This document shows positions 4,791-52,260 of a stretch of 52,717 nucleotides of DNA, piece by piece. Each line of letters begins with the position of its first letter. Within the stretch, counting starts at the first letter, position 1. The stretch lies in the NCBI GenBank assembly GCA_016195275.1, contig JACPZZ010000023.1:1-52717 (forward strand). Reading direction: 5' to 3'. A program made the position numbers and the translations under genes. A model generated the notes under the pieces. That model ran no database searches and was not told the DNA's origin. It saw only the letters and a program-made list of their open reading frames with translations. The stretch is from Candidatus Aenigmatarchaeota archaeon (GTDB lineage Archaea; Aenigmatarchaeota; Aenigmatarchaeia; JACPZZ01).

Positions 4791-4919
4791 CGGATCCGGC
4801 GGGATTTGAACCCGCGACCTTCAACTTTCTCCATCCCCTTTTGGTAAGCTTTTCCTAAAAGCTTGTTCTAAAAAGCTCGTTAGGAGGCTGCCGCTCTGTC
4901 CAGGCTGAGCTACGGACCC
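4791..4919 (-). tRNA. tRNA-Arg(CCU) with 54-nt intron at the canonical 37/38 position
   Basis: Hand fold: acceptor GGGTCCG/CGGATCC, D arm GCTC-AGCCTGGACA-GAGC, anticodon arm GCAGC-CTCCTA[intron]A-GTTGA (27:43 is a G.A mismatch), T arm GCGGG-TTCAAAT-CCCGC. The intron maps to about 4827-4880. No encoded CCA. Confidence 0.8.
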
Positions 4920-7400: not shown

Positions 7401-7563
7401 AATTATCAGTAAGTCATGTCTTTCGCGATATTTATATTTTGTAAACGAACTAATCTCGGTTCGGATGAGTTCTATTATCTGTTAAACGCGGCTTCTTTAC
7501 TTGCTCATGCAGGCAATTTTTAAACTTTGGCAGTCTATCTTTCGTTAGCTTGTGGTGCTGGAA

Positions 7564-29255: not shown

Positions 29256-29368
29256 TGCCTGGACCGAGAATTGAACTCGGGACCTTTCGATACCACTTCA
29301 CAGCCGCTAAGGCTCGTCACTCATAATGAACTTATGAGTCGAACGCTCTACCGCTGAGCCACCCAGGC
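29256..29368 (-). tRNA. tRNA with CAU anticodon (elongator Met or Ile2) with 41-nt canonical intron
   Basis: GCCTGGG-TG-GCTC-AGCGGTA-GAGC-G-TTCGA-CTCATA[intron]A-TCGAA-AGGTC-CCGAG-TTCAATT-CTCGG-TCCAGGC-A. The intron segment TTATGAG pairs with the anticodon loop CTCATAA. The anticodon stem lacks the three G-C pairs of initiators. Confidence 0.85.
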
Positions 29369-34982: not shown

Positions 34983-35082
34983 TGGGCCCAGCGAGATTTG
35001 AACTCGCGACCTGTCGATATCCCAATGAACTAAAAAAGCTCAAATAAGAGTCGAACGCTCTACCAGGCTGAGCTATGGGCCC
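34983..35082 (-). tRNA. tRNA-Lys(CUU) with 26-nt canonical intron
   Basis: GGGCCCA-TA-GCTC-AGCCTGGTA-GAGC-G-TTCGA-CTCTTA[intron]A-TCGAC-AGGTC-GCGAG-TTCAAAT-CTCGC-TGGGCCC-A. The 27:43 pair is a U.C mismatch. The intron is about 35019-35044. Confidence 0.8.
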
Positions 35083-36113: not shown

Positions 36114-39100
36114 TTAGTCTAATTTTATATTTTTCAGAAATTTTGAAATAAGTATTTTGAAATTCTTCCTGTTTCCCAGCGCAGCAGCAACCAGGACAGT
36201 CGCCGCGGCCGCAAGCAATAGCAGGATTGTTGCACCCCTGTCCCTGGCTTCTTGTGCCGCAGGTTCGGGGGTTTTATTTTTTTCAGTGTCGTTTACAATT
36301 ACAAACGTAGTGTTCGGCGGAATCGAAACATTGAACATTGTTGTGGTCGTGGTCGTAGTTGTCGTGGTTGTGATTGCGGTCGTTGTCGTCGTTGTCGCAG
36401 AACTACCGCCACCAGTCGGGCCGCCGGTTGGCGGACGGGCAGACACACACGCCACGCACGGCCCGCCGCAATCCGTTCCGCCTTCGCCCTGGTTTTGTAT
36501 ATTATCGCTGCAAGTCGGCATAACAAAAACCCCATAGACGCTGAAGTGTGTTGAGTTGGCCCAGACATATTTGTCTGTCGTGTTGACGCCCCCCACGTTT
36601 GCGCCGCTGAATAAAACCCAGCTTCCGTTAGGGTGGTTGTAATAGATTCTCAGGTTGTTTTCATCGTAACCAGCAGGAATTTCAGAGGCCGTGTAAGGCA
36701 TCCTCATTTCAACCCAGGTCAGGGTCTGGTTCAGCCACCCACCCACCGATATCTCTGTGAACCTGCTTAAAGACACCGCAGCATTATTTTCGTTTGAAGG
36801 ATTATTTGCATAATAAGCTACAATCAAAGAGTCTGTAATTCCGGAGTCTGACGAGGAACTTATGTTAAGTGTGATATTGGCCTCTGCCGAAAGGTTAAAC
36901 AACATCACACTCCTCACAGGAACCGAGGGGTTTGAAAAAAGCGCCGTTGTAACCGAAGACGACACAGTGAAATTTCCCAGCGAGTAATTAACTGCGTTTC
37001 CAAAAAAATCGGCGAAGGACACATTGATATAAAACAGGCCGTTGTTCAGTGCAGAGGTGTTAAGGCTGGTGAAAAAAGTTGTCCTGTTAAGAAACTGAAC
37101 ATTACCCTCAACGTTGATAATGTAGTTCAACACCTTTCTAAGCACGCTTGCGTTCGTGGTGTTGAAGATATTTACAGTCGCCGTATTCGCGCTGTAATCG
37201 TCCGAGATAGCAAGCACACTTATGTTCCTGTTTATGCCGGCCGATCTTGGCAGCGCCCAGCCGTCTGCTAGCACAGGCGGTGACGTGTCCACGACCCTGA
37301 AAACAATATGTTCAAGCGTCGCGTTGGCCGTGTAATTCTCGTTGGCTGAGGAGTTCGCGGAAAAGTTGTAGATTCCTACCGGCTGGGCTGTTCCGGTAAA
37401 CGTATTTGTGCCTATGCTGGAATTCCTCAGCAACAATTGTTCTAAAGTGGTATTTGAATAAAGCCTGGTTTCTATTTTCACATCAACAGACGACGAATTT
37501 ATGTGGAACGGCCCGGGTATCTCAACAGTTGTTGCGTTTGCGCTTATAGAAGTATAAGCCGACGTGTTTTTTTGTATCACATAGTACCACGCGTTTGTTT
37601 TATTCCAGTTGTTGGAAGTATCGTTGGCGTACCAAATTACAGGATAGCCTGTTGCGTTGGCGGCCAAGTCCGTGATATTGACCGACCAGTTGCCGGATGC
37701 GGGCGTGCCTGCAAACATTGAAGCTGTGTAATTGGTGGCGTTGAACTGCATTACCGCATGGGATATGCCGGCGTTATCCTGAAGCGTGGCGTTAAACCTG
37801 TAAACCCTGTTCGGGAAATATTGAATCCCGCTGTCCGGCGATGTCGCATCGGAAACAATCAGAGGCGTTACTATATCGGCCACGGTGGCGAATAACATCT
37901 GCAAGGATGCGGAGTAGTTGTCATCGCCCCTGAAATACGCTGTGATGTTGAATATACCGGGTTGATTAAGCAGGGTCTCATTATTAACCCTGTTAGTTGC
38001 GTTCTGGTCGGTCCAGCCGCTCATGTTCGAGGTAAGCGTTAAATTTTTCCCGGAAATATTTACTGTGGCTGTGAAATTGGCAAACGTCGAATAATTGTAT
38101 ACAAAATTAGCTGCGCTTCCATTCAGCAGAAGCGTTATGCTGGTTGGCCGTTTTGTAACAGTTAATATCCTGGTTATGTTTGCAAAAGAATAATTTTCGC
38201 TTTCTGTAAATGCCAGCGTATAATTGTAAATTCCGCCAGATAAAATCACGGATTCATTGGGCTGGTTTATTCCTGCAATTCCAACAACAGAGCCGTTCCT
38301 GTATAACGTCAGGTTTCCTTCCGTAAAGTTCTTCCATCCGGTGATGTTTAGTGTGTAGTCGTAAGGTGAGAAGACGTCGTTATTTGTGTTATTTAACGTG
38401 AGGTTCATGAAATTCTTGGAGTAGTTCTTAGAGATTATGTATGCAATCGACGAAGTCGAGCCCCATTCGTTCTGCGATGAGTTGGCAAACCACCTGTAAA
38501 CGTGAATTCCTGCAGGCAGGTCTGTTATGTTTATCCAAAACAGGCCAGCGCTGTTGTTGTAAACTTGGTATGCGGAATTTTTTGTGTAATTGGTATTGTT
38601 CAACTGGAAGATTGCGTGAGAAATTTCATCCGGCGAAATTGTGCCAGTCACGTTTATTTCAAAGCTGTAATTCTCCCTGGGCGCATACGGGGTACCGGAG
38701 TTCTTGCCTGTCTTATCATTGCTGAATACAACCGGCGTTCCGGAATACGCTACAAAATACTCCTGCGATCCTGCGACAGAAGTTCCGTTTACATATATAT
38801 GCCACGGCCCGCTTACCGGATTGGAAACAAAAACCTGCTCTACAGTATCATTGACATCGGAGGGGTTGGTGAAGTTGTTTGTAGCGTTTCCCACAATAAG
38901 ATCCAAATTATCTTTGGTGGTGCTGTTTTCCATCCACGACAATGTGACCCTGAACTGGGAAGAAGACACGAAAACGCTTTTCTTTTTCAGACCGCTTTGC
39001 TGAACAGACTCGTTCCACGATTTTTTCATAGAATAGACGGCTTCATAAGCGTCCAGCCTGCCTGCGCCGTAATTGTTGTTCCTTTGCGTGAAACCGTCAA

Positions 39101-40295
39101 TGGTCATGTTGGACGTGTTGACGGAATTTATCAGTATCGATTTTATCAGACCCGGGCTTGGAAGATAGCCGAAGCTTTCGTTATGCCTTTGCATAAGCAT
39201 CGCCGCTATGCCGGACACAAAAGGCGCGGCCATCGACGTGCCCGAGGCTGTAGCATAATTGCCGCCAAGATAAGAAGGGTACGTGGATGTTATACTCGCG
39301 CCTGTCGCGGACAAATCGGGTTTCGTTCTGTTATCGTTTGTCGGCCCGCGTGAACTGCCGGAAACTATTTTATCGGTTTTATCCGTATTGCCGACAGCGA
39401 TGGACGTTTTCGCGCATGCGGGCGCCGCCATCGTCCTTGCTGAAGGTCCGGAATTGCCCGCAGCAACAATGACAACGACTCCCCTGCTCGTTGCATTGTC
39501 AACAGCAGCCGAAGAGCCGACGTCGTAGCAATCTGCAAACTGGTTGAATGTTACGCCAAGGCTCATCGAAATGATGTGCGCGCCGTTATCCACAGCCCAT
39601 TGTATGCCGGAAACTATGTCGCTGTCAGACCCGTCGCCGTTGCTGTCCAAAACTTTTACCGCCATGATACTGGCATTAGGCGCAGTGCCGCGGCCGAAAG
39701 AACCGCCCTCGCCTGCGGCTATGCCTGCGACGTGCGTGCCGTGGCCATGATCGTCTGTTGCATTACTGCTTGTGGCCGTATTGTTCGGCGGGCATTTGTT
39801 CTGAGTGAAACATTTTTCAATTATTATCCTGTTAGGTGTCTGGAATTCGCTGTGGTTGAATACGCCGGTATCTATTATCGCGATCTTTATGTTTGTCCCG
39901 TTAGAACCGAACGTGTTCATCGCCAAATCGGCACGCAACAAGGGTATCGCATTGGATCTGAAAGCCTTTACAGGGTGGTCTATGGTAATTTTTTTGACAA
40001 AATCAGCGGATGCGAGTTCCTTTAATTTGGATTTTTTAACTTCCATGGCCACTGCAGGTATGATGTCGAACTCCTTTTTGATTTTGCCCGCGTTCGCAGC
40101 TTTGTACCTGTCGTATTTTTCCCTGTCCACCCACACGATGACTTTTATCGTTTCGTCCCCGGTTTCGTTTATTTTAACCGCAAGGTTCTTGTCAAGTTTT
40201 TCCACGCCTCTGGCATCGTAGGATTTGCCTGCTACTATGTTTGTAACTAGAATCAGGCACAAAATCAGGCCCACGAACAAAGCGGCGTTTTTCAT
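36114..40295 (-). CDS. giant surface-anchored subtilisin-like (S8) serine protease with sequon-rich C-terminal extension
   Basis: 1393 aa. Signal-like N-terminus and catalytic triad contexts DTGV, HGTHVAGIAAG, SGTSMAAPFVSG. About 850 residues are N-x-S/T-rich. Then a Cys motif CSDNIQNQGEGGTDCGGPCVAC, a poly-Thr linker (TTTTTTAITTTTTTTTTTT) and a C-terminal TM helix. Confidence 0.85.
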   Translation of the reverse strand: MKNAALFVGLILCLILVTNIVAGKSYDARGVEKLDKNLAVKINETGDETIKVIVWVDREKYDRYKAANAGKIKKEFDIIPAVAMEVKKSKLKELASADFVKKITIDHPVKAFRSNAIPLLRADLAMNTFGSNGTNIKIAIIDTGVFNHSEFQTPNRIIIEKCFTQNKCPPNNTATSSNATDDHGHGTHVAGIAAGEGGSFGRGTAPNASIMAVKVLDSNGDGSDSDIVSGIQWAVDNGAHIISMSLGVTFNQFADCYDVGSSAAVDNATSRGVVVIVAAGNSGPSARTMAAPACAKTSIAVGNTDKTDKIVSGSSRGPTNDNRTKPDLSATGASITSTYPSYLGGNYATASGTSMAAPFVSGIAAMLMQRHNESFGYLPSPGLIKSILINSVNTSNMTIDGFTQRNNNYGAGRLDAYEAVYSMKKSWNESVQQSGLKKKSVFVSSSQFRVTLSWMENSTTKDNLDLIVGNATNNFTNPSDVNDTVEQVFVSNPVSGPWHIYVNGTSVAGSQEYFVAYSGTPVVFSNDKTGKNSGTPYAPRENYSFEINVTGTISPDEISHAIFQLNNTNYTKNSAYQVYNNSAGLFWINITDLPAGIHVYRWFANSSQNEWGSTSSIAYIISKNYSKNFMNLTLNNTNNDVFSPYDYTLNITGWKNFTEGNLTLYRNGSVVGIAGINQPNESVILSGGIYNYTLAFTESENYSFANITRILTVTKRPTSITLLLNGSAANFVYNYSTFANFTATVNISGKNLTLTSNMSGWTDQNATNRVNNETLLNQPGIFNITAYFRGDDNYSASLQMLFATVADIVTPLIVSDATSPDSGIQYFPNRVYRFNATLQDNAGISHAVMQFNATNYTASMFAGTPASGNWSVNITDLAANATGYPVIWYANDTSNNWNKTNAWYYVIQKNTSAYTSISANATTVEIPGPFHINSSSVDVKIETRLYSNTTLEQLLLRNSSIGTNTFTGTAQPVGIYNFSANSSANENYTANATLEHIVFRVVDTSPPVLADGWALPRSAGINRNISVLAISDDYSANTATVNIFNTTNASVLRKVLNYIINVEGNVQFLNRTTFFTSLNTSALNNGLFYINVSFADFFGNAVNYSLGNFTVSSSVTTALFSNPSVPVRSVMLFNLSAEANITLNISSSSDSGITDSLIVAYYANNPSNENNAAVSLSRFTEISVGGWLNQTLTWVEMRMPYTASEIPAGYDENNLRIYYNHPNGSWVLFSGANVGGVNTTDKYVWANSTHFSVYGVFVMPTCSDNIQNQGEGGTDCGGPCVACVSARPPTGGPTGGGSSATTTTTTAITTTTTTTTTTTMFNVSIPPNTTFVIVNDTEKNKTPEPAAQEARDRGATILLLLAAAATVLVAAALGNRKNFKILISKFLKNIKLD

Positions 40296-40341: not shown

Positions 40342-40932
40342 ATGGAACACTACTTCACAAAATCGCCCGGCCCGGTTGGGACCATAAAGATAATAACCGC
40401 GCTAATCAACGGCGCTAACTACAGGTTCGCAACAGCCGGCGGCGTCTTCTCCAAGGACCGTGTAGACAGGGGCACGCTTCTTCTGATAGAATCCGTGCGC
40501 GTTTCCAAAAACGACAAAATTCTGGATCTGGGATGCGGTTACGGAGTTATCGGCATCGCGTTTTCAAAGTATGTAAGGTGGGTTTTCATGACAGACATAA
40601 ACGAGCGCGCCGTGGAACTGGCAAAGCTTAGCGTGGAGCTGAACAAATTAACAAACGTAAAAGTCTTTGATGGCGATCTTTACGAAAGCGTGAAAGGCGT
40701 GAGATTCGATAAAATAATGTGCAACCCGCCCATAAGAGCGGGAAAGGCTGTTGTAAATAAGATTATAGAGGGCGCTTTGGAGCGTTTGGAGGCCGGCGGC
40801 TCTTTATACCTTGTGGCCCGTACAAAGCAAGGCGCGAAATCAATAGCCAAAAAAATGAAACAGGTTTTCGGCAACCAGGAATATGCGAGCAAAAGCGGCG
40901 GTTATAGGGTAATGTTTTCAAGAAAGGGATAA
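40342..40932 (+). CDS. small-domain class I SAM methyltransferase (RsmC/MJ0882-like)
   Basis: 196 aa. ILDLGCGYGVIG (motif I) and CNPPIRAGK (NPPxxxG motif IV). Confidence 0.8.
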   Translation: MEHYFTKSPGPVGTIKIITALINGANYRFATAGGVFSKDRVDRGTLLLIESVRVSKNDKILDLGCGYGVIGIAFSKYVRWVFMTDINERAVELAKLSVELNKLTNVKVFDGDLYESVKGVRFDKIMCNPPIRAGKAVVNKIIEGALERLEAGGSLYLVARTKQGAKSIAKKMKQVFGNQEYASKSGGYRVMFSRKG

Positions 40933-41864: not shown

Positions 41865-42620
41865 ATGAACAAATTAAAGTTTCCGTGGGATTTTGAAAAT
41901 AAAATCATTTGTGGAGATACAATAGAAGTAATGAAACAGATACCCAACGGTTCGGTTCAATTGATAGTAACCTCACCCCCATACAATCTTAAAAATTCTA
42001 CGGGCAACGGTATGAAGGACGGACGTGGCGGAAAATGGGCAAACGCTGCTTTACAAAAGGGGTATTCTAATCATGACGATTGTATGTCACACGAAGAATA
42101 TGTAAAATGGCAAAAAGCGTGTCTAACAGAGATGATGAGAATAATTCCAGAAGACGGAGCAATTTTTTATAATCATAAGTGGCGAGTACAAGATGGTTTG
42201 TTGCAAGATCGACAGGATATCGTTAATGGCTTTCCAGTTAGACAAATCATTATTTGGAAAAGAAAGGGAGGTATTAACTTCAACAAAGGCTATTTTCTTC
42301 CAACTTATGAAGTGATATATCTTATTGCGAAACCCAAGTTCAAGCTTGTTTCAAAAGCAAATGCGTACGGAGATGTATGGGAATTTACGCAAGAAATGAA
42401 TAATGACCATCCCGCGGCATTTCCCGTACAATTGATAGATAGAATAATATCTTCAACGAATACCAAGATTATATTGGACCCGTTTATGGGGTCTGGTACA
42501 ACAGCAATTTCTTCGATTAAATTTAATCGGAATTATATTGGAATCGATATTTCTCCCGAATATTGTGAAATGGCACGAAATAGAATAAAGCAACATCAGG
42601 CCCAAGCTATATTACGGTAA
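41865..42620 (+). CDS. beta-class DNA methyltransferase (SPPY type, probably N4-cytosine)
   Basis: 251 aa. Motif IV VTSPPYNL near the N-terminus and motif I DPFMGSGTTA near the C-terminus. AT-rich coding sequence. Confidence 0.85.
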   Translation: MNKLKFPWDFENKIICGDTIEVMKQIPNGSVQLIVTSPPYNLKNSTGNGMKDGRGGKWANAALQKGYSNHDDCMSHEEYVKWQKACLTEMMRIIPEDGAIFYNHKWRVQDGLLQDRQDIVNGFPVRQIIIWKRKGGINFNKGYFLPTYEVIYLIAKPKFKLVSKANAYGDVWEFTQEMNNDHPAAFPVQLIDRIISSTNTKIILDPFMGSGTTAISSIKFNRNYIGIDISPEYCEMARNRIKQHQAQAILR

Positions 42621-42624
42621 TACT

Positions 42625-43422
42625 ATGAAAACTAAAACACGTATCTATACGAAACAAACATTGATAGGTAGGTTAAAAGAAATTGCTAAAATGGGATTCG
42701 TACCAAACAATCGATTTGGTAATTCTGGTGGAATTGGAAATACACTCGAAGATCTTTTAGAAATTAAAGAAAACAATCTTCCTATGCCGAATGCAGCGGA
42801 ATGGGAGTTAAAAACACAACACATTAATTCATCTTCTCTTACAACGCTCTTTCACATAGAACCTTCCCCTCGTGCAATTGGTTTCGTGCCACAAATATTT
42901 TTGCCAAAATATGGATGGCTACACCAAGAAGCCGATAAGAAATACCAAAAGGGAGAAATGAGTTTTCGACAAACAATAAATGGTAATTCTAGAAGTGATC
43001 GAGGCTTCAAGGTGGTTATAGATCGTAAAGAACAAAAGGTGCTTATTTCGTTTGATGCGAACAGCGTTTCTCCGAGGCATAAAGAATGGTTAGAGTCGGT
43101 AAAACAGCGGGTAGGTCTTGGAGAACTTAATCCCCAGCCGTATTGGGGTTTTGAGGACTTAAAACATAAAGCTGGAACAAAATTGCTTAATGCGTTCTAT
43201 GTTCAAGCCGAGGTAAAAAAAGACACCAATAGGGAATATTACAAATATAGCAAGATTATGATGTTACAAAAGTTTAGTTTCGAAGGATTTTTGCGAGCAC
43301 TTGAAGCTGGTAAAATTCTTGTAGATTTTGATGCACGTACAGGGCACAACCATGGCACAAAATTCAGGTTGAAGCAAGATTGTTTACCAATGCTTTACGA
43401 AAAAGTCACTATAATTCTTTAA
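42625..43422 (+). CDS. MvaI/BcnI-family type IIP restriction endonuclease
   Basis: 265 aa. From memory of the BcnI sequence: GGIGNTLEDLLEIKENNLPMPNAAEWELK resembles GVVGQILERQFGVQENNITLGDLGEFELK, TTLFH resembles LTLFH, and C-terminal NHGTKFRL resembles DRGPHLRI. It starts 4 nt after the methylase. Confidence 0.7.
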   Translation: MKTKTRIYTKQTLIGRLKEIAKMGFVPNNRFGNSGGIGNTLEDLLEIKENNLPMPNAAEWELKTQHINSSSLTTLFHIEPSPRAIGFVPQIFLPKYGWLHQEADKKYQKGEMSFRQTINGNSRSDRGFKVVIDRKEQKVLISFDANSVSPRHKEWLESVKQRVGLGELNPQPYWGFEDLKHKAGTKLLNAFYVQAEVKKDTNREYYKYSKIMMLQKFSFEGFLRALEAGKILVDFDARTGHNHGTKFRLKQDCLPMLYEKVTIIL

Positions 43423-44137: not shown

Positions 44138-44635
44138 TTGCACAACCGATATTGGGTATTAGGCGATGTTTTGACATTCAATATTCGTGATCTGTTTCGC
44201 AGCAGCAAAAGAAACGTAGCCATTTTTATCGACGGCCCGAACATGATTCGCAAGGAGTTTAACATAGACCTGAAAGAAGTCCGCGAGCGCGCGCAAAAAT
44301 ACGGCAGGATAGTTTTCGGAAAAGTATTCCTTAACCAGTTCGCGTCTGAAAAGCTAATCGAGGCCGTGGTCAGCCAGGGCTTTGAGCCTTTGGTGACACT
44401 TGCCGTTGAAAAAGACCAGGATATAGACGTGCATATGGCAGCCGAAGCCATGGAAGCTGCTTACAGCAGCAACATAGACGTTATCGTTATCGTATCAAGG
44501 GACACGGATTTCCTGCCGGTAGTGCAAAAGGCAAAGAAAAAAGGCAAGATAACGATTGTAATGGGTTCCGAGCCAGGCTTTTCAATGGCTTTGAGAAATG
44601 CGGCAGACCATGTTGAGGATTTGACAAAGAAATAA
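44138..44635 (+). CDS. NYN-domain (LabA/DUF88-like) predicted ribonuclease
   Basis: 165 aa with a non-ATG start of uncertain position. VAIFIDGPN (first Asp) and VIVSRDTDFLPVVQKAKKKGKITIV (DxD plus Gly-Lys) match NYN signatures. Confidence 0.75.
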   Translation: MHNRYWVLGDVLTFNIRDLFRSSKRNVAIFIDGPNMIRKEFNIDLKEVRERAQKYGRIVFGKVFLNQFASEKLIEAVVSQGFEPLVTLAVEKDQDIDVHMAAEAMEAAYSSNIDVIVIVSRDTDFLPVVQKAKKKGKITIVMGSEPGFSMALRNAADHVEDLTKK

Positions 44636-44670
44636 ATATTTTTGTTGGACAACAGCCCGCAGTATGTGCT

Positions 44671-44678
44671 TATATAAA
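44671..44678 (+). promoter_or_regulatory. TATA-like box preceding the duplicated 20-nt leader
   Basis: tatataaa lies immediately 5-prime of ccttgtattctggcgttgtg (44681-44700). Confidence 0.3.
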
Positions 44679-44695
44679 TTCCTTGTATTCTGGCG

Positions 44696-44746
44696 TTGTG
44701 ACTAAAGTGCGATTTGTGATTAAAGTAGGGCGGATGTGATTAAAGT
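44696..44746 (+). repeat. three direct iteron-like 13-mers (TTGTGAYTAAAGT)
   Basis: ttgtgactaaagt at 44696-44708, ttgtgattaaagt at 44714-44726, atgtgattaaagt at 44734-44746. Spacing is 18 and 20 nt. Confidence 0.6.
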
Positions 44747-44826
44747 CTGTGAATTGGTCAATTTTCGATCAGGCAACCCAAAACAACACGTAACCGTTAA
44801 ATAGGGGTACCTTTCGATAGTTCTAT

Positions 44827-45297
44827 ATGGTTAAGATCGAAAACATATATTTGGACACATCATTATTGATCGGTGTTGCCCTTTCTCTTATGGATAGTAA
44901 AAACGACGATACACGCATCGTAAAATTTCTTGGCAAGCACAAAAGTGAAATAACGGCTTATACATCTTTTCTTTCCTTGGCAGAGTTGGCCAAAACGATT
45001 AAAACTGACAGGAGATTTCGAAAATTCTGGAGTAATGATAAATCCATCGTTGCCTTTATCGATACCGTTATCAAGACTACGAACTTAATCATTATAGAAA
45101 ACGAAAAGGCTATAATTCGAAAAGAAATAATAGATTTTGTCCTTCTTCACCAAGAAGTTTCTGACTGCCTTCATGTAGGTCTGGCAAAACTTAATAATCT
45201 GTGGTTCATTACTCACGATGATAAGATAGGAAAAATAAAGCCATTATACGAGAACATAATGACAGACACCAAACTAATGAAACAATTCGACGATTAA
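44827..45297 (+). CDS. PIN-domain nuclease (VapC-like)
   Basis: 156 aa with an ATG start. Acidic quartet candidates: YLDTSLL (D10), SLAELAK (Glu), VSDCLHVGLA (Asp), ITHDDK (Asp). Confidence 0.6.
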   Translation: MVKIENIYLDTSLLIGVALSLMDSKNDDTRIVKFLGKHKSEITAYTSFLSLAELAKTIKTDRRFRKFWSNDKSIVAFIDTVIKTTNLIIIENEKAIIRKEIIDFVLLHQEVSDCLHVGLAKLNNLWFITHDDKIGKIKPLYENIMTDTKLMKQFDD

Positions 45298-45452
45298 TCT
45301 TTGCTAAGATTTTTCATTATCTCTTTTACTTTGGCCTTTCCTTCCTCATAGGTAAATGTCTTGGTGGGCTCTAGAACAGTAATAAAATGGCCGTTAAGCT
45401 TGACAGTTTTCCTTTTCATGTCCTTAATGATAACGTTAACGTTTTTTCTCAT
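45294..45452 (-). CDS. small hypothetical protein (52 aa from ATG; ORF opens at GTG 45512)
   Basis: MRKNVNVIIKDMKRKTVKLNGHFITVLEPTKTFTYEEGKAKVKEIMKNLSKD. It is convergent with the PIN gene and overlaps it by 4 nt. Confidence 0.35.
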   Translation of the reverse strand: MRKNVNVIIKDMKRKTVKLNGHFITVLEPTKTFTYEEGKAKVKEIMKNLSKD

Positions 45453-45513
45453 GTTATAATGTTTCAAAGGAATAGCATATAAGTTTAAATACTTAAGTAA
45501 TCTATTAATCACT
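45453..45513. promoter_or_regulatory. AT-rich divergent promoter region
   Basis: A 60-nt AT-rich spacer (tataatgtttcaaaggaatagcatataagtttaaatactt...) lies between the divergent small ORFs at 45452(-) and 45514(+). Confidence 0.3.
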
Positions 45514-45789
45514 ATGTTAACTAATGAATTGAGAAATAAATTAAGAGAAGAACTAAAGAATAACCCAAAAAAGGCTATAGAGATTTTGAAAAAAGAACCT
45601 CAAGTTATAGAAATGCTTCTTAATGCAACCGAACAGGTAGAAAGGGAGAGAAACGAAAAAATAAAATATGTAAACATGACGGCAGAAATGGACATACAAC
45701 TTCGTGATAGAGCGTATCAACTGAAAACCACGCAAGGTGCACTGATCGGTGCGGGTCTTTTATTTCTACTGTTGTTACTCGAAGATTAA
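45514..45789 (+). CDS. small tail-anchored membrane protein, function unknown
   Basis: 91 aa with an ATG start. A charged helical N-part is followed by a C-terminal TM helix ALIGAGLLFLLLLL ending ED. Confidence 0.4.
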   Translation: MLTNELRNKLREELKNNPKKAIEILKKEPQVIEMLLNATEQVERERNEKIKYVNMTAEMDIQLRDRAYQLKTTQGALIGAGLLFLLLLLED

Positions 45790-45840
45790 AGTCGCCTTGT
45801 TGTGATTTTAGTCGTCGTTTTTGGGCACTTAAATCACAAG
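45784..45840. repeat. second cluster of the iteron-like motif (two direct, one inverted copy)
   Basis: gattaaagt at 45784-45792, ttgtgattttagt at 45800-45812, inverted acttaaatcacaa at 45828-45840. It overlaps the perfect palindrome acaaggccttgt (45835-45846). Confidence 0.55.
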
Positions 45841-45858
45841 GCCTTGTATTCTAGTGTT

Positions 45859-46455
45859 ATGGGTTACAAAACCAGAACATTTCCTGATATAACCGAAGCT
45901 AGAAAAATTTTGGAACTGGACTTACGTAGATATTTCAGAGCAATACGGGCCATGCGCTCTTACAACCAGTTCATAGAAGCAGCCAGCCCCGAAGTTGATG
46001 TTGTCGGGCAGGAAGCGGGAAAGGTTATATCAGAAACCGGCGCCATTGGAAAGTTAAGCCTTACCAGTTCATATCTCGGTTTCATGGATATTACCGACGG
46101 CAAAATGTATGACACGCACTCAATGAGGAATGCGATGGCAAGCGGGTATTTAATGGAAAGATTTATCAGCGGTTTTCATTTCTGGCTTCGTGATGAGCGT
46201 GTGGCGTTTGAATGCCTGTATGTGGATGCGCCAGCCCATGTAAAAATGATCGGGTCAATGGGGACAGAAACGATAGACGGAATTGTCCGCCTCGGCGCAG
46301 AAACCAGAAGCGAATCCGGCATGGTCTTTCTCAATGCCCCGGAAAAACCGGAATTTTATTTCGCATTTGTTGCAGAAGATGACACTGGTATGCATGCGAA
46401 TTTACTTGTCCGATGCATTTCGCAAGATCCTTTTTACCTGTCCCCGCGTCCCTAG
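45859..46455 (+). CDS. orphan 198-aa protein, function unknown
   Basis: I trimmed to the ATG at 45859 because the upstream part of the ORF is the repeat region. No motif recognised. The 3-prime end overlaps the aRF1 stop by 4 nt (convergent). Confidence 0.5.
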   Translation: MGYKTRTFPDITEARKILELDLRRYFRAIRAMRSYNQFIEAASPEVDVVGQEAGKVISETGAIGKLSLTSSYLGFMDITDGKMYDTHSMRNAMASGYLMERFISGFHFWLRDERVAFECLYVDAPAHVKMIGSMGTETIDGIVRLGAETRSESGMVFLNAPEKPEFYFAFVAEDDTGMHANLLVRCISQDPFYLSPRP

Positions 46456-48998
46456 TATTTCACCCTGTATCTTAATATCCCGCCGATTCCGCCAAGCTCT
46501 TTTAGCTGTGCGCCTTCTCTTGTGCTCGAAGAAACGATGTGGTATTCCGTTTTGAAGTCCTCTGCGGTTGTTATAGCAACGTCGATTAAGTCTTCGGTAT
46601 TAACAGTGCGCATTTCCATCCTGCAATTGGAGCAAAGCTGTTTCTCGTTGGGTTTGTAATCGCGCGTTTCTTGGTTGCCGCAGCTTCCGCACTTTAAACC
46701 CGAACGAATCCAGTCAAAATCCTCGGACACTATCAGCTTCTGCAGCATACCGTTTTGCAGCGCCTCTTTGACTTTTCCCCAGCCGTAGATAGCCAAGCCG
46801 GAATCTTTCTGCAGCTCTGTGAAAAAACCCTTCAGGAGCTCTATCTCCTTTGTGACAGCGGCATTTGAGAGTATCTTTTGCGCCCTGTTGACAAGCTCGT
46901 GCAAACCGGCCTCGTTTGTATAAGAAATGTCAACAACTCCGGCCACTTTTTTCTGGAGTTCGTAATGCAGATAGCCGTCTTTAACAAAATCGTCTTTAAC
47001 AGGTCCCGGCCCGCCGATGATTATGCCGATAAGCTCTTTCTTTCCAAGGAACGCCTGCGTAGCTATATCGGAAACCTCTTTCAGGAAATCATTCAGCAAA
47101 CCTTCGCGTATCCGCGCATATCTTTGCTGGCTGTTGTGCAGAATCAGCCCGTTTGCTATGAAATTGTTAAGTTTTGGCACAGATATATCATAGAATATGC
47201 CAGGCGATTCCACCGCCTTTTTACCTTTTATTTTCAGCGCGATCAGGTTGCCCAAAACTTCGTGTCGTAGATAACCGATTTTTTTGTGCCGTATTAAATC
47301 TTTTATTCGGTTTGTCTTGCCCTTGGAGGAAAATCCTATCATCTGCTCGAATTTCACTATGTACACTGGCCCTGTAATTCTGACACAATATTTATTTACC
47401 TTGGAAAAGCTGCCTTTCGGAGACCTTACGGAAAACGATGACACTATACCGAACCGCAAAAGCAGCTGCTGGAGTGTCCTTATCACAGCTTCGCTGGACA
47501 TGGTTATCCCCACCACACCAGCGTTCGTGTCTATATAACCCTCTGCATCGAACAGCCCTTTGATAAAAGCCGCAACTTCCGGGTTTTGCGACATTTGGAT
47601 CTGTTCAGGTATACTTCTTGAATGCGCATTCAGCGCCACGGACGGGAACACAGTGTTTATAAAACCGGACAGGTACTTGCTGTGTATTTTAATCTCGTAA
47701 TACCCTTTTGAAACCCTCTTCCTTATTCTGGTGTTTGCGCCAAACAGCCTTCTGGACAGGGAACTGTAAAACTCCGCCAACTGAATATCGCCTTCGTACA
47801 GTCTGGGCCCGAACTCGTCAATACCGCCGCCGCCCATGAAGTACCCCAAAAACTGGCAAAATTCCTCGTTAATCAATTTTGGTATTTTAACGAGATCCGA
47901 AGATTCTATATGATGCCTGTAAAAATACCCCCTGTCGATACCAAGCAGGCTTAGTAATTTATTCAGATTTTCTTTTTTCAGCATTCTTTGGTTAAGCTCT
48001 AGTTTTGATATTATTGTTTGAGAAAGGCCGAGTTTTTTAGCCACATATTTTTGTGACATCCCGTTTGAAATGCGTTTCCGCACCAGCAGCTTAATCCCAG
48101 TCGCCTTGATCCTTAGCGATTTTGGCGTCTCATAATCGATGGACATGCGTCTACCTTCAAGGTCCATTTTTAGTGGAGAAAGCAGCAGATCCCCTTCTTT
48201 TATTTCTGATAAAGGCCTGGACATTATCGTGTTCCTATCGAAAACAAAGAAATTGTGTTCTGGGGTTGCGACAATCTTCATAGACGGGGCTTGTGTAACT
48301 ATTTCATAAGCGGTCTTCGCTTCCCTTCTCCTGATCGTATCAAAGCTGGTGCTTTCTGTTTTGTCTTCGATAAAATTGAAAGCTGACACACGGCCGCCTT
48401 TAAGGTCCTTAATGCTGACTAGCCTGCCGTCAGGAACCTGCACCATGGTGTTTTCATGAACGCACCACCCCCCGGCCGCCGTTTTGGATGGCACCAAAGA
48501 ATCGACGTGTTTGAACACAACTATTTTTTTGCCGGCCAGATAACCTATCGTAGCCTCGGACTTGTCCACGGCCAACAAACCGTAAACTTCCTTGTCCTTT
48601 ACCATTTCTTCAAGGGGCTCAAGCACGAATTGCTGGTCGCACCAGTAAAGCTTGTTTTGCATTTTCTCCGGCGGCTCAATAGCCCACAAATCGAGTTTCT
48701 GTGCGCCTTCGGTTTCAGAAACATTTCCTGAAAAAATCGCGAGCCCGTTCTCCGGAGTTTCGCGGTAGATCCTGAGGTGCTGTATTATTTTATCCAGCGC
48801 AGCCAGCACGTTGTTGCGCGTGGCTTTTGACTTGATGTTTTGTGTCGTAGAGCCTTCGGATTTTAGCTGGTTTATGATATCTATCAAACTGTAGCCTGCA
48901 GGAACATAGACCGTAACCAGTTCCGTGTGCCGCCCGCGTATCTTCTTTAGCCGGCGTATGAGCTTTTTTAATTCTATTATCCTGATATCATTGGGCAT
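46452..48998 (-). CDS. prf1: peptide chain release factor aRF1 interrupted by an in-frame intein
   Basis: NIKS motif (TQNIKSKATR) and YxCxxxF (YWCDQQF). Extein junction TAAGGW/SQQRYARIRE aligns with the GGQSxxRFxRLR region. The ATG is at 48998 (the ORF opens at TTG 49007). Confidence 0.9.
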   Translation of the reverse strand: MPNDIRIIELKKLIRRLKKIRGRHTELVTVYVPAGYSLIDIINQLKSEGSTTQNIKSKATRNNVLAALDKIIQHLRIYRETPENGLAIFSGNVSETEGAQKLDLWAIEPPEKMQNKLYWCDQQFVLEPLEEMVKDKEVYGLLAVDKSEATIGYLAGKKIVVFKHVDSLVPSKTAAGGWCVHENTMVQVPDGRLVSIKDLKGGRVSAFNFIEDKTESTSFDTIRRREAKTAYEIVTQAPSMKIVATPEHNFFVFDRNTIMSRPLSEIKEGDLLLSPLKMDLEGRRMSIDYETPKSLRIKATGIKLLVRKRISNGMSQKYVAKKLGLSQTIISKLELNQRMLKKENLNKLLSLLGIDRGYFYRHHIESSDLVKIPKLINEEFCQFLGYFMGGGGIDEFGPRLYEGDIQLAEFYSSLSRRLFGANTRIRKRVSKGYYEIKIHSKYLSGFINTVFPSVALNAHSRSIPEQIQMSQNPEVAAFIKGLFDAEGYIDTNAGVVGITMSSEAVIRTLQQLLLRFGIVSSFSVRSPKGSFSKVNKYCVRITGPVYIVKFEQMIGFSSKGKTNRIKDLIRHKKIGYLRHEVLGNLIALKIKGKKAVESPGIFYDISVPKLNNFIANGLILHNSQQRYARIREGLLNDFLKEVSDIATQAFLGKKELIGIIIGGPGPVKDDFVKDGYLHYELQKKVAGVVDISYTNEAGLHELVNRAQKILSNAAVTKEIELLKGFFTELQKDSGLAIYGWGKVKEALQNGMLQKLIVSEDFDWIRSGLKCGSCGNQETRDYKPNEKQLCSNCRMEMRTVNTEDLIDVAITTAEDFKTEYHIVSSSTREGAQLKELGGIGGILRYRVKY
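47133..48464 (-). mobile_element. intein (444 aa) with LAGLIDADG core and an XRE-type HTH
   Basis: Starts CVHENTMVQVPDG and ends GLILHN, followed by the +1 Ser. LAGLIDADG motifs are FLGYFMGGGGIDE and AAFIKGLFDAEGYID. HTH segment is MSQKYVAKKLGLSQTIISKLELNQR. Length is 1332 nt, in frame. Confidence 0.85.
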
Positions 48999-49015
48999 AG
49001 CAATCAATTGGTTTG

Positions 49016-51439
49016 TTATAAAATAAGAAGCAATTTCGCGCCCATTTCATGCACATCAACGACATTTTTGCCTTCCAGTATTGTGCCGAGCCTTATGTCC
49101 CTGACGTTCATCGCGCCGCTGATGTCCTTCAGAACCTTTGAAACACTGCCTAAATCCTCGTCTTTGCATTGGATTATCAGTTGTTTTATTTCCGAGTTAA
49201 GCGGCAACGAATTTGAAGTCTTGAATTTTCTAATCGCAGAAACAACCAGCTTCGCAGCCCCCCCGGCCTTTTCGATGTTATCGTCTATCGAGCTTTCGTC
49301 GGCTTCCGGCCATTCCGTTTTGTGAATGCTCGCAGAATCGCTGAAGTTTTTGAAGTAGGACTGATAAACTTCCTCTGTGATATGTGGCATGAACGGGGCG
49401 AGCATTTTAGTGCAATCGAAAACCAGTTTGTACAGCGTTGTTTCAGCCGACTTTTTTTCTATGTTGTTGTAAAACCTGTACTTCACAAATTCCAGGTAAT
49501 TATCCGCAATTTCGTGCCAGATGAAGTCGTGTAAAGTCTCAAACGCATACGCAAACTGGTAAGATTCCAGGCTTTCGGTTATGTCCTTTATCTTTTTGTT
49601 TAGCCTTGAAATGATCCATTTGTCCATAACAGATGTTATCTCAGAAGGTTTTTCGAAATCCGCAGCGTTTGAGGCGAAGAAACGAAATATATTCCAGAAC
49701 TTGGTGGAAAATTTGTACGCAAATTCCATATTCTGCCAGTTGAACGCGGCGTCGCCGGAATACAAACCGAGCATAACCAGTCCTGCACGAAGCGTGTCTG
49801 CGCCGTGCTTGAGCAGTATCTCGTCCGGCAAAACGACATTGCCAAGGGATTTGTGCATTTCCCTGCCGTCCGGGCCAAGTATTAAACCGTTGACAAGTAT
49901 GTTTTTCCACGGCCTCTTGCCCGTTTCCAAATAACACCTTAGTATGGTATAATACGCCCACGTCCTTATTATGTCATGGCCCTGTTGCCTCAGGTCAGCA
50001 GGATACAATTTTTGGTGAAGCGCCATGTTGTTTTTCCAGTAGCCTGAAATGACCAGCGGCGTTATTGAGGAATCTATCCAGCCGTCGCAAACATCCGTTT
50101 CTCCGACAACATCGCCGCCGCATTCGCATTTCTCCGATTTATACCTTTCAGACGACGTATCAACAGGAAAATTTTCCGCAGGATATATTTTGCCGCAACT
50201 TTTACAGTGCCAAAAAGGGATAGGCGTTCCGTAAACGCGCTGCCTGGAAAATACCCAGTCCCAGTCCATCGAATTTACCCAGTTGTCGAGCCTTGTTTTC
50301 ATGTGATCCGGGAACCAGTTGATGCCGCCTGAAATTTTCAATATGTCATTGGAGCTGTCCTTGACCTTGATTGTCCATTGCTTCATGGGGATGAATTCTA
50401 TGGGGTTTACGCACGCTGACCGCTCGGTGTGGCACAAAACGTTGTGGGAGAATTTCTCTTCCTTTTCAACCAGGCCAAGCATGCCGAGTTCTTCGACTAT
50501 CTTGATCCTTGCGTCAGCAAGTTTCATGCCGGCGAAATTTTTCGCGTTTTCGTTCAACTTGCCATACACATCGATCAGGTTTATCGCAGGCAAATTGTAG
50601 CGCTTCTGCCATTTTATGTCCATCTCGTCGCCGTAGGTGCACAGGTAAACCACGCCTGTGCCAAATTCCATGTCAACGTCCGGGTTCGCTATGACTTTTA
50701 CTTCCTGGCCGAATATCGGGATTTTTACAGTCTTCCCGGCCATATCCGAATGTTCTTTGTCTTCGGGATTAACGAACACCGCAACGCACGCAGCCATCAT
50801 CTCAGGCCTTGTGGTCGCGATGGTTATTTTCTTACCGTCTTCAACATTGAGTTTGATGTAATACAGAACGCCGTCCTTTTCGACATAACCGACTTCGGCC
50901 TTTGCAAGTGTCGTTGCGCATTTGGTGCACCACATCACAGGGTGTTCCGCGCGCTCTACAAGGCCTTTCTCAAAAAGTTTCACAAGAGTTTTCTGTATAA
51001 ATCCCACGTATTCTGGCGAGTCCGTGGTATATTCGTAATTCCAGTCCGCGGAATAGCCTACAGACGACATGTATTTCTTCATGCCGGCTATGCAGACGCC
51101 TGTCCACTCCTTGCACGCGGCCAGGAATTTTTCCCTTTCATTTTTCCTTATCTTGTAGTCTTTTTCCACCTTTAATTCCGTAGGCAATCCGTGGCAGTCC
51201 CAGCCCTGCGGCAGAAGCACGCCAAAGCCTTGCATGCGTTTGAAGCGGGCGATTATGTCGTTCCATGTCCACCACAGGACATGCCCCATGTGCGGAACCC
51301 CTGACGTGAAAGGCGGCGGCGTATCTATCACAAAAGTCTTTTCCGCGTTCTCATCGAAATTGTAGACCCCGTTCTCTTTCCAGTAATCCTGCCATTTCTT
51401 TTCCGCTGTTTTCGGGTCGTATCTTTTTTGCATCTCCAT
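49016..51439 (-). CDS. valS: valyl-tRNA synthetase
   Basis: PPPFTSGVPHMGHVL (HIGH), EMHKSLGN (KMSKS variant), and class Ia editing and anticodon-binding domains. The ATG is at 51439 (the ORF opens at GTG 51463). Confidence 0.9.
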   Translation of the reverse strand: MEMQKRYDPKTAEKKWQDYWKENGVYNFDENAEKTFVIDTPPPFTSGVPHMGHVLWWTWNDIIARFKRMQGFGVLLPQGWDCHGLPTELKVEKDYKIRKNEREKFLAACKEWTGVCIAGMKKYMSSVGYSADWNYEYTTDSPEYVGFIQKTLVKLFEKGLVERAEHPVMWCTKCATTLAKAEVGYVEKDGVLYYIKLNVEDGKKITIATTRPEMMAACVAVFVNPEDKEHSDMAGKTVKIPIFGQEVKVIANPDVDMEFGTGVVYLCTYGDEMDIKWQKRYNLPAINLIDVYGKLNENAKNFAGMKLADARIKIVEELGMLGLVEKEEKFSHNVLCHTERSACVNPIEFIPMKQWTIKVKDSSNDILKISGGINWFPDHMKTRLDNWVNSMDWDWVFSRQRVYGTPIPFWHCKSCGKIYPAENFPVDTSSERYKSEKCECGGDVVGETDVCDGWIDSSITPLVISGYWKNNMALHQKLYPADLRQQGHDIIRTWAYYTILRCYLETGKRPWKNILVNGLILGPDGREMHKSLGNVVLPDEILLKHGADTLRAGLVMLGLYSGDAAFNWQNMEFAYKFSTKFWNIFRFFASNAADFEKPSEITSVMDKWIISRLNKKIKDITESLESYQFAYAFETLHDFIWHEIADNYLEFVKYRFYNNIEKKSAETTLYKLVFDCTKMLAPFMPHITEEVYQSYFKNFSDSASIHKTEWPEADESSIDDNIEKAGGAAKLVVSAIRKFKTSNSLPLNSEIKQLIIQCKDEDLGSVSKVLKDISGAMNVRDIRLGTILEGKNVVDVHEMGAKLLLIL

Positions 51440-51459
51440 TTTATCCTTCCCGTGAAAAT

Positions 51460-52260
51460 TCACTTACGTATGTATTTGCTTAGCGGAGTGTAGTTTTTAT
51501 CCAGGTCCAGTTTCATTCCATCCGCGGCCGCGATCACATCAACGCCGGTTTCTTTTGCGGCCTTCAGCGCCTGTTTGTCCGGATCCCGCTCAATAACCTT
51601 CATCCCGAAATGCTGAAGCACGCACAATTTAGGTTCGGTCTCCTTTATCAGGGTTATCGCATTTTCAAGGTTCATGTGCATAGGCCATTTATCATTGTCC
51701 GGTCGCAGCATGTTTATTATCAGCAAATCCGCTTTTTGGTGGTATTTATTTAATTCGGGAAAATATTCACCGTCCGAAGTGTAGGATATGGTCTTAGAGC
51801 CTTCTATCCTGAACCCTATGCACGTAGGATCCGTGTGCCTGGTGGGCGTGGCTTTCACGGTTATGTTTTTCAGGTTTGTAGAATCGCCAGCCTTCATGAC
51901 AACCACATTTTCAAGCGTTTTCAGGTACATTTTAAGGACGGCCGGGCTGTCGTTTTCGTAGCCTCTTACCGCAGACACGCTGCCTACCAGTATTCCCTTC
52001 GGGTTTTTCGTGCCCTCGGTCATGGCATCGATTACGGCATTGCAGTCATTGGAATGGTCAAGGTGCACATGCGAAAGCATTATCACATCAGTATTCCTTA
52101 TGTTTACTCCGTATTCTTTTGCCCTTACCAAAGCGCCTGGCCCCGGGTCTACATGGATGTTGACGCCGTCCATATCTACCCTGAACCCTCCGGTTGCTCG
52201 CGACTGCGTGGCCATCGCGTATCTCCCGCCTCCGCTGCCTAGGAAAACAAGTTTTGCCAT
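51460..52260 (-). CDS. metallo-beta-lactamase-fold hydrolase
   Basis: LSHVHLDHSND (HxHxDH) and downstream His/Asp ligand contexts. The ATG is at 52260 (the ORF opens at GTG 52269). Confidence 0.8.
   Translation of the reverse strand: MAKLVFLGSGGGRYAMATQSRATGGFRVDMDGVNIHVDPGPGALVRAKEYGVNIRNTDVIMLSHVHLDHSNDCNAVIDAMTEGTKNPKGILVGSVSAVRGYENDSPAVLKMYLKTLENVVVMKAGDSTNLKNITVKATPTRHTDPTCIGFRIEGSKTISYTSDGEYFPELNKYHQKADLLIINMLRPDNDKWPMHMNLENAITLIKETEPKLCVLQHFGMKVIERDPDKQALKAAKETGVDVIAAADGMKLDLDKNYTPLSKYIRK

Follow-up and report, generated by a model that had tools for sequence, protein, structure and literature searches.

Class-1 release factors of all three domains of life share the textbook motif GGQ. 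The locus described here raises the question of whether an archaeon may terminate its proteins with a release factor in which the Gln of this motif is absent. It is located in a stretch of 52,717 nucleotides (positions 1 to 52,717 of contig JACPZZ010000023.1, Candidatus Aenigmatarchaeota archaeon, assembly GCA_016195275.1), referred to below as the window, and encodes the archaeal class-1 release factor aRF1, which is interrupted by an intein directly behind a Gly-Gly-Trp (GGW) tripeptide. An earlier sequence-only reading had noted this Trp and offered four explanations for it: a crippled allele, a sequencing or assembly error, a second aRF1 copy elsewhere in the genome, or a lineage in which peptide release tolerates a variant motif. 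The analysis presented here favours the last of these in a broader form: the gene probably encodes a release factor that is functional, present in one copy and independent of the Gln side chain, and Trp is one of several residues found at this position among its relatives.

The open reading frame (ORF) of aRF1 (46452-49007, minus strand) comprises 851 codons when counted from a TTG at 49007 and ends with the stop codon at 46452-46454; the ATG at 48998 is likely to be the start, which would give a precursor of about 848 residues. An exact look-up of the precursor sequence retrieved no existing record. The ORF matched TIGR03676, the aRF1 equivalog, with 438.2 bits against a cut-off of 234.7, as well as the Pfam families eRF1_1 (E = 4.6e-16), eRF1_2 (5.5e-30) and eRF1_3 (5e-22), and inside the same ORF Intein_splicing (2.1e-17), LAGLIDADG_3 (5.9e-21) and HTH_3 (2.4e-11) were also matched. 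As had been read from the nucleotides, both stop-codon recognition motifs are intact in the translation (TQNIKSK, 48825-48845, and YWCDQQF, 48627-48647), and no GGQ string occurs anywhere in the translated ORF; NIKS and YxCxxxF were invariant across 14 aligned orthologues. The C-extein comprises domain 3 as well as the remainder of domain 2, with a CxxC...CxxC zinc-ribbon insert at 46623-46691. In phmmer alignments with proteins of solved structure, GGW-SQQRY falls without gaps on GGQ-SAQRF (4af1), GGQ-SQRRY (3agk) and GGQ-SALRF (human eRF1), confirming residue for residue the earlier proposal that Trp stands on the invariant Gln. Gly-Gly is retained, Gln is replaced by Trp, and the protein was classed as an orthologue of aRF1 whose catalytic motif is variant, not as a canonical member. 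It shares with canonical aRF1 and eRF1 (TIGR03676; 4af1, 3agk, 1dt9, 3jag) the three domains, NIKS, YxCxxxF, Gly-Gly, the loop length, the fold and the S-x-x-R-[FY]-x-R helix after the tripeptide, and its zinc-ribbon insert in domain 3 resembles that of 4af1; it differs from them in that their third residue is a Gln described as universally conserved and N5-methylated, whereas the window has Trp (its relatives Met, Tyr or Phe) and an intein at this place. The AlphaFold model of the spliced protein, with a mean predicted local distance difference test score (pLDDT) of 72, was matched by Foldseek to 4af1 (E = 2.6e-39, template modelling (TM) score 0.65) and to ribosome-bound eRF1 (3jag, TM 0.70), the matches to Pelota and Balon being far weaker.

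The assignment of the insertion to an intein, both its junctions and the spliced product were borne out by the reading of the strand, by profile matches and by alleles with an empty site. On the minus strand, the N-terminal junction reads ACG GCG GCC GGG GGG TGG / TGC GTT CAT GAA (T A A G G W / C V H E) and the C-terminal junction CTG CAC AAC / AGC CAG CAA AGA TAT (L H N / S Q Q R Y), with Cys1 at 48462-48464, Asn444 at 47133-47135 and Ser+1 at 47130-47132. The splicing residues are complete (Cys1, T-P-E-H of block B, His-Asn and Ser+1); PF14890 was matched with 63.8 bits (cut-off 35.8) and TIGR01443, for the C-terminal region, with 29.6 (cut-off 15.6), and TIGR01445, for the N-terminal region, gave 22.8, slightly below its cut-off of 24.5. 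Two intein-less orthologues (L001 and L002) carry the exact empty site, ...GGG TGG/TCG CAG..., with GGW and SQ contiguous. Since they read GGG TGG/TCG at the insertion point, the junctions are fixed and an alternative splice site that would restore Gln is excluded. One such alternative, an intein running from W to S and leaving GG/QQRY, was ruled out, because GGWSQ is contiguous in the alleles without an intein and the distance to R-[FY] would fall short by two residues. Seven orthologues at 75-88% identity have a length of 404-407 residues, in agreement with the absence of an intein.

The spliced extein was searched against 5.8 billion proteins, and the best 120 matches were analysed. These homologues, 50-88% identical and 376-453 residues long, are all without an intein, and all their named source organisms are Aenigmarchaeota or Aenigmatarchaeota; the intein-less orthologues P0001-P0004 are 88% identical to the extein. 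None of the best 120 relatives had GGQ: the tripeptide is GGW in 106, GGM in 11, GGY in two and GGF in one. G176, G177 and W178 are invariant in an alignment with 13 homologues, down to 53% identity, and the GGYSQMRYQHVR sequence was also read out in loci L030 and L063.

Species-representative genomes were scanned twice, which gave 160 loci with 137 distinct aRF1 genes among the matches listed, to which all counts from these scans refer; the window's own genome is not among the species representatives, and the best match there was 88%. GGQ is found in 80 of these genes, and the other 57, called variant below, have GGW (38), GGM (17) or GGY (2). At this codon the 38 Trp genes all have TGG and the 17 Met genes all have ATG, and TAY also occurs. 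Where the title of a locus names another lineage (Thermococcus, Woesearchaeota, methanogens, Nanohaloarchaea etc.), GGQ is present in 38 of 38 cases. Variant loci are mostly titled Aenigmatarchaeota or 'archaeon', with the exceptions of L069 (Nanoarchaeota) and L043 (Gammaproteobacteria). Distant aRF1s were sought among 1.84 billion cluster representatives in a full HMMER pass, and further tripeptides without Gln were found at 30-43% identity: contiguous GGW in P0188 (locus L161, from the NCBI metagenome-assembled genome (MAG) GCA_003558235.1), P0200 and P0237 (38-43%), GGF in P0143, GGE in P0245 and P0270, and GGS in P0219. As to the titles of the records, L043 (CAZPZA010000026.1, 'uncultured Gammaproteobacteria bacterium') holds an Aenigmatarchaeota-type GGM aRF1 and is probably mis-binned, and P0270, an NCBI aRF-1 from [Eubacterium] cellulosolvens, suggests archaeal contamination of a bacterial assembly.

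Between the exteins and the closest intein-less orthologue, L001, 23% of the nucleotides differ, and the ratio of non-synonymous to synonymous substitution rates (dN/dS) is 0.036, indicating strong purifying selection. Because the codon recurs, the tripeptide is lineage-wide and dN/dS is this low, a sequencing error, a pseudogene and a crippled allele are all excluded: the first is contradicted by TGG at this codon in 38 independent genomes, and the last by dN/dS together with the clade-wide conservation of the residue. What remains supported among the four explanations is the lineage that tolerates a variant motif, with the refinement that the residue may be Trp, Met, Tyr or Phe and not Trp alone. 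Trp appears to be the native, selected state of this lineage, and the comparison suggests that this orthologous gene has exchanged the GGQ Gln for Trp, Met, Tyr or Phe within a large Aenigmatarchaeota clade. In the window, aRF1 is preceded on its own strand by the valyl-tRNA synthetase gene valS, the end of which lies a few bases upstream, and the same arrangement was seen at many of the 80 loci examined by tblastn. These include the GGW loci L001, L002 and L011, 17 GGM loci, both GGY loci and 12 GGQ loci (L036, L040, L042, L044, L048, L056, L057, L061, L068, L071, L074 and L078); L162 has the same order of Lactamase_B, valS and aRF1. Since valS lies directly upstream of all types, variant and canonical genes share one genomic position.

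The explanation by a second aRF1 found no support. There is no second eRF1-family gene within the window, and among the matches listed by the two scans no assembly out of about 135 had two different aRF1 loci, recurring assemblies being represented by the same gene. In the second scan, which was run with a peptide pattern specific for GGQ, about 13 of the 21 Aenigmatarchaeota genes of the GGQ type seen in the first came up again, and among the matches listed there was no GGQ aRF1 gene in the 57 variant genomes. The complete 742-kb chromosome CP070804.1 (L107) has, among these matches, the GGW gene only, and variant genes also lie on contigs of about 0.8 Mb (L022 and L052, both GGM); large contigs with such genes include CAYJQI010000001.1 and JAVZHQ010000001.1 (0.8 Mb, GGM) and one of 1.1 Mb that carries P0017 (GGW). 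All three stop codons terminate Pfam-supported genes of the window (12 TAA, 10 TGA and 5 TAG), so an omnipotent factor is needed.

The locus would therefore encode, as the comparison with its orthologues suggests, the organism's own aRF1, apparently in a single copy. Splicing, to judge from the intact splicing residues, would release a 404-residue aRF1 with the catalytic loop GGW-SQQRY, and it would be necessary for function, since the unspliced precursor cannot put the loop into the peptidyl-transferase centre. Peptide release is presumed to be retained. In the canonical motif the two Gly adopt torsion angles available only to glycine; the main-chain amide of Gln is critical in catalysis, a change of Q to P abolishing release; and the Gln side chain serves packing and water selection, a change of Q to E keeping reasonable activity (PMC4691834; PMC5799190). 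With both Gly kept, the main-chain NH of the third residue could still reach A76 of the P-site tRNA, so the backbone NH might do the chemistry while the packing in the pocket, normally provided by N5-methyl-Gln, falls to a bulky hydrophobic side chain. Because Gly-Gly, the loop length and the backbone are all preserved, the filling of this pocket by Trp, Met, Tyr or Phe is chemically plausible; Met, in our estimation, is close in shape to N5-methyl-Gln. Mutation of the intein's homing site at this codon may have helped to drive the diversification of the codon.

Neighbouring changes seem to accompany the switch, namely Gln at +2, Tyr in place of Phe at +5 and Phe in place of Trp at +16. When variant and GGQ genes were compared within the Aenigmatarchaeota set, the best discriminating positions clustered at the loop and its helix. 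In spliced numbering, position 178 is Trp in 67% of the variant genes (Met or Tyr in the remainder) and Gln in 100% of the GGQ genes, position 180 is Gln in 91% against Ala in 50% (A/S), position 183 is Tyr in 86% against Phe in 93%, and position 194 is Phe in 86% against Trp in 62%.

Laboratory mutants of RF1, RF2 and eRF1 (Shaw and Green 2007 and Seit-Nebi et al. 2000, as cited in PMC4691834 and PMC12440015) likewise have the Gln of GGQ replaced with Gly-Gly and the backbone kept, and the view drawn from them there is that the backbone NH is essential and that the side chain mainly packs and selects water. They are, however, engineered and usually harmful in vivo, whereas the type found in the window is natural, fixed in a clade, under purifying selection and accompanied by the changes at +2, +5 and +16.

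Several points weigh against a functional release factor of this kind. Changes of the GGQ Gln are reported to be deleterious in vivo in yeast and E. coli, and a Q182E mutant could not be propagated (PMC12440015). The pLDDT of the model is below 50 at residues 170-183, which form the GGW loop, so that the geometry of GGW is not readable from it. The covariation fits local compensation, yet it is confounded by shared ancestry. A rough neighbour-joining tree places the W, M and Y genes in one large clade within Aenigmatarchaeota with three GGQ genes nested among them, and because of this nesting the history would not be that of a single clean switch. A single copy of aRF1 is strongly indicated but not proven, as the genomes are MAGs and the counts cover the matches listed. 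With these points taken into account, we still hold it probable that the factor works without the Gln side chain. Somewhat less assured, while still the likelier case, is the wider proposal that much of Aenigmatarchaeota, together with scattered cases elsewhere, terminates every protein with a release factor that has Trp, Met, Tyr or Phe in place of Gln.

A functional factor might also be obtained in another way, by a Gln two residues downstream that takes over the side-chain role in GG[WMYF]-S-Q, a possibility that we regard as unlikely. It draws on the proteins aVLRF-1 and acVLRF-1, which carry a GGxSQ motif (Burroughs and Aravind 2019, PMC6514570), and on the distribution of this residue: among 371 distinct sequences, the +2 residue is Gln in 113 of 149 GGW, 32 of 33 GGM and all four GGF genes, against 24 of 180 with GGQ. 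The association may simply reflect shared ancestry, however, and many canonical archaeal factors also have GGQSQ, as in 3agk. Nor is the downstream Gln obligatory, since 36 of the 149 GGW genes have Ala there (GGWSAN or GGWSAS). The window protein shares the GG-x-S-Q pattern (GGWSQ) and the aeRF1 superfamily with aVLRF1 and acVLRF1 but is a full aRF1 with a stop-codon-reading N domain (eRF1_1), and its gap-free alignment gives the loop a canonical length, whereas VLRF1 proteins are described with a longer catalytic loop (PMC6514570). The Pfam match to acVLRF1 (37 bits) lies under a stronger match to eRF1_2, and despite its GGWSQ string the protein does not belong to the VLRF1 family.

Slightly less probable still is that a GGW or GGM aRF1 reads stop codons without hydrolysis. 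The hydrolysis would then be performed by another protein, such as a canonical GGQ paralogue of aRF1 or a VLRF1/ICT1-like hydrolase, or the factor would have a different job, in rescue or hibernation, like Pelota or Balon. Published descriptions call the Gln of GGQ universally conserved and ascribe importance in vivo to it (PMC5799190, PMC6144793), and proteins of the aRF1 fold without GGQ do have other roles, Pelota/Dom34 and Balon being among the fold matches. However, NIKS and YxCxxxF, which are absent from Pelota and Balon, are invariant here, and the score for pelota (TIGR00111) is 66.5, below the cut-off of 177.65, against 438 for the aRF1 equivalog, so that the protein is not a paralogue of the Pelota or Balon type. 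Its position next to valS is also that of the GGQ orthologues, no second aRF1 was seen in the window or, among the matches listed, in the 57 variant genomes, and a dead stop-codon binder would compete with the live factor.

An artefact or a decaying gene in any form (a base error, a pseudogene, a Gln-restoring junction or TGG decoded as Gln) has a negligible probability, as its only support is the unexpectedness of a non-Gln residue at this position, against which stand the same TGG in 38 independent genomes with ATG or TAY in others, the low dN/dS and the contiguous GGWSQ of intein-less orthologues, which leaves no room for another junction. The recoding of TGG as Gln was rejected because the other four TGG codons of the gene are ordinary Trp codons, two of which fall on conserved Trp residues (W119 and W319 of the spliced protein), and it would leave the Met, Tyr and Phe variants unexplained.

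If the factor indeed works without the Gln side chain, this side chain and its N5-methylation would be dispensable for life, and only Gly-Gly and the backbone NH would be irreplaceable. The variant clade would then be an in vivo test in the long debate on whether the Gln side chain is catalytic or only packs the active site, with natural variants ready-made for biochemistry and cryo-electron microscopy. GGQ has been called universally conserved, and methylation of the aRF1 Gln was proposed as general in archaea (PMC6144793). Trp, Met, Tyr and Phe cannot undergo this N5-methylation, and the loss of accessory genes such as Mtq2 is predicted. No methyltransferase with NPP[YFW] turned up when all the fetched loci were swept for this motif. 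The only MTS-type methyltransferase of the window (40342-40932, plus strand) was rejected as a candidate for Mtq2: its 196-residue product has an NPPIRAG motif, is an orthologue of MJ0882 (PDB 1dus, 191 bits) and thus of the MJ0882/RsmC-like type, and gave 60.8 for TIGR00537 against a cut-off of 87.

Full-text literature searches found no paper on an aRF1 intein or a GGW release factor, and on release factors of Aenigmarchaeota or DPANN nothing relevant beyond a taxon abbreviation; an earlier description elsewhere is possible in both cases. Of the two results, the release factors with GGW, GGM, GGY or GGF are the more surprising; the intein site is under-described yet widely used.

To our knowledge, the GGx/S site of aRF1 is missing from the classical lists of intein insertion sites, as the sequence-only reading had stated, but it proved to be heavily used in metagenomic archaea. 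Relatives of the intein were sought with a junction query and by a search of cluster representatives, and among the best 150 of these, 49 inteins exactly at GGx/C...HN/S were parsed, of which 46 match the window intein by BLASTP (hence at least 46 of 150). This count overstates how common they are, since the fast divergence of inteins splits their sequences into many 50% clusters. Their host tripeptides are GGQ in 34 cases, GGW in six, GGM in five, GGF in two and GGS in one; GGK (P0189) and GGL (P0204) were left uncounted as wrong picks of the N-junction in proteins with another insertion. In size they range from mini-inteins of 130-150 residues to full-size inteins of 400-630 residues. The closest match to the window intein is P0125, with 43% identity over the full length. 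The related MAG GCA_016177205.1 (protein P0272) has the same intein at GGW/CIHEES with the same gene neighbours, its N-extein being 92% and its intein part 57% identical to those of the window, and further close relatives of the window aRF1 are intein-less. Such a patchy distribution is typical of a mobile intein, and the intein of the window appears to belong to a mobile and widely distributed group of homologous inteins with GGx/S as their specific site.

A second intein site of aRF1 was observed within YxCxxxF in the metagenomic proteins P0194, P0197, P0227, P0222 and P0204. In the first four both junctions were seen (...LYR/C[IV]SPD... and ...VHN/CDDHF), with the invariant Cys as the +1 nucleophile. 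P0222 has inteins at both the YxC and the GGQ sites, and P0204 apparently does too, only the N-terminal side of its YxC insertion having been matched. With insertion sites in both key motifs (GGx/S and YxC), aRF1 is a heavily used intein host, and the annotation of archaeal metagenomes is affected, as contigs and gene calls break at aRF1 inteins.

The window intein shares Cys1, TxxH, His-Asn, the +1 nucleophile and a nested endonuclease with the class-1 LAGLIDADG inteins of archaeal information-processing proteins, and like them it interrupts an essential gene at its most conserved catalytic motif and is scattered among close relatives. Families of intein-containing IF2, VMA, RFC and RNR gave partial NCBIfam matches to the ORF. 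It differs from that class in its host site, in an XRE-type helix-turn-helix (HTH) module and in the loss of the Asp of motif 1. The module (HTH_3), placed between the N-terminal splicing region and the endonuclease domain, is present in 13 of 17 aligned full-size homologous inteins; in the inteins of P0133, P0246 and P0134, at the same aRF1 site, an HTH-like segment was seen between the endonuclease domain and block F. In all 17 aligned full-size homologues, motif 1 has the form [LI]G[YV]xxGD[GA], the window alone deviating, and with this Asp absent the window intein lacks the pair of catalytic acids of a LAGLIDADG enzyme. A segment of about 70-100 residues ahead of block F is missing in the window intein and in P0125. 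The homing endonuclease of the window is thus probably inactive, with splicing preserved. The GC content of the intein is 43.8%, against 48.0% in the exteins. Coordinates are collected in Table 1.

Table 1. Features of the aRF1 locus and its intein (positions in the window)
Feature	Position	Strand	Sequence or residues	Remarks
aRF1 precursor gene (N-extein, intein and C-extein)	46452..48998	-		ORF list, TIGR03676, Pfam eRF1_1/2/3
N-extein	48465..48998	-	178 aa from ATG	holds NIKS and YxCxxxF; C-terminal tripeptide GGW (48465-48473)
Trp codon at the Gln position of GGQ	48465..48467	-	TGG (plus strand cca)	intein -1 residue
Class-1 intein	47133..48464	-	444 aa	PF14890, TIGR01443, empty-site alleles
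Intein block A	48435-48464	-	CVHENTMVQV	
Intein block B	48243-48275	-	IVATPEHNFFV	TPEH = intein residues 67-70
XRE-type HTH module (HTH_3)	47922..48080	-		PF01381, 43.9 bits, E = 2.4e-11
LAGLIDADG homing-endonuclease domain	47334..47852	-		PF14528, 75 bits
LAGLIDADG motif 1	47817-47852	-	FLGYFMGGGGID	LGYFMGGGG; Gly in place of catalytic Asp
LAGLIDADG motif 2	47529-47567	-	FIKGLFDAEGYID	LFDAEGY, intact
Intein block F	47148-47201	-	GIFYDISVPKLNNFIANG	
Intein block G	47133-47147	-	LILHN	His443-Asn444
C-extein	46452..47132	-	226 aa and stop codon	from Ser+1 (SQQRYARIRE)
valS, valyl-tRNA synthetase gene	49016..51463	-		directly upstream of aRF1

The window contains a second intein of 555 residues (8107-9771, plus strand) inside the ORF 7552-12126, whose host is a class-I tRNA synthetase, probably IleRS, with the domains tRNA-synt_1, Anticodon_1 and DUF5915. 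Its junctions read ...YPVHVCSH/CVDPDS...GFLAHN/CETAVS, and no similarity to the aRF1 intein was detectable by phmmer. A segment of about 1.8 kb (44636-46451) separates aRF1 from an NYN-domain gene (44138-44635); it is missing in the closest relative, L001, where the two genes are adjacent. It contains a PIN-domain ORF (44827-45297) and two ORFs without a Pfam match (45514-45789 and 45802-46455), and may be an inserted toxin-antitoxin-like cassette. The genes at 41865-42620 and 42625-43422, both on the plus strand, form a type II restriction-modification-like pair of an N6_N4 DNA methylase and an MvaI/BcnI-family endonuclease. Five tRNA genes were found with Rfam against two with ARAGORN; the extra three (4791-4919, 29256-29368 and 34983-35082, all on the minus strand), of 100-129 nt, probably contain introns. 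Two long genes on the minus strand encode a protein of 1254 residues without a Pfam match (964-4728) and one of 1393 residues (36114-40295) with an N-terminal subtilase domain and a long tail without a match.

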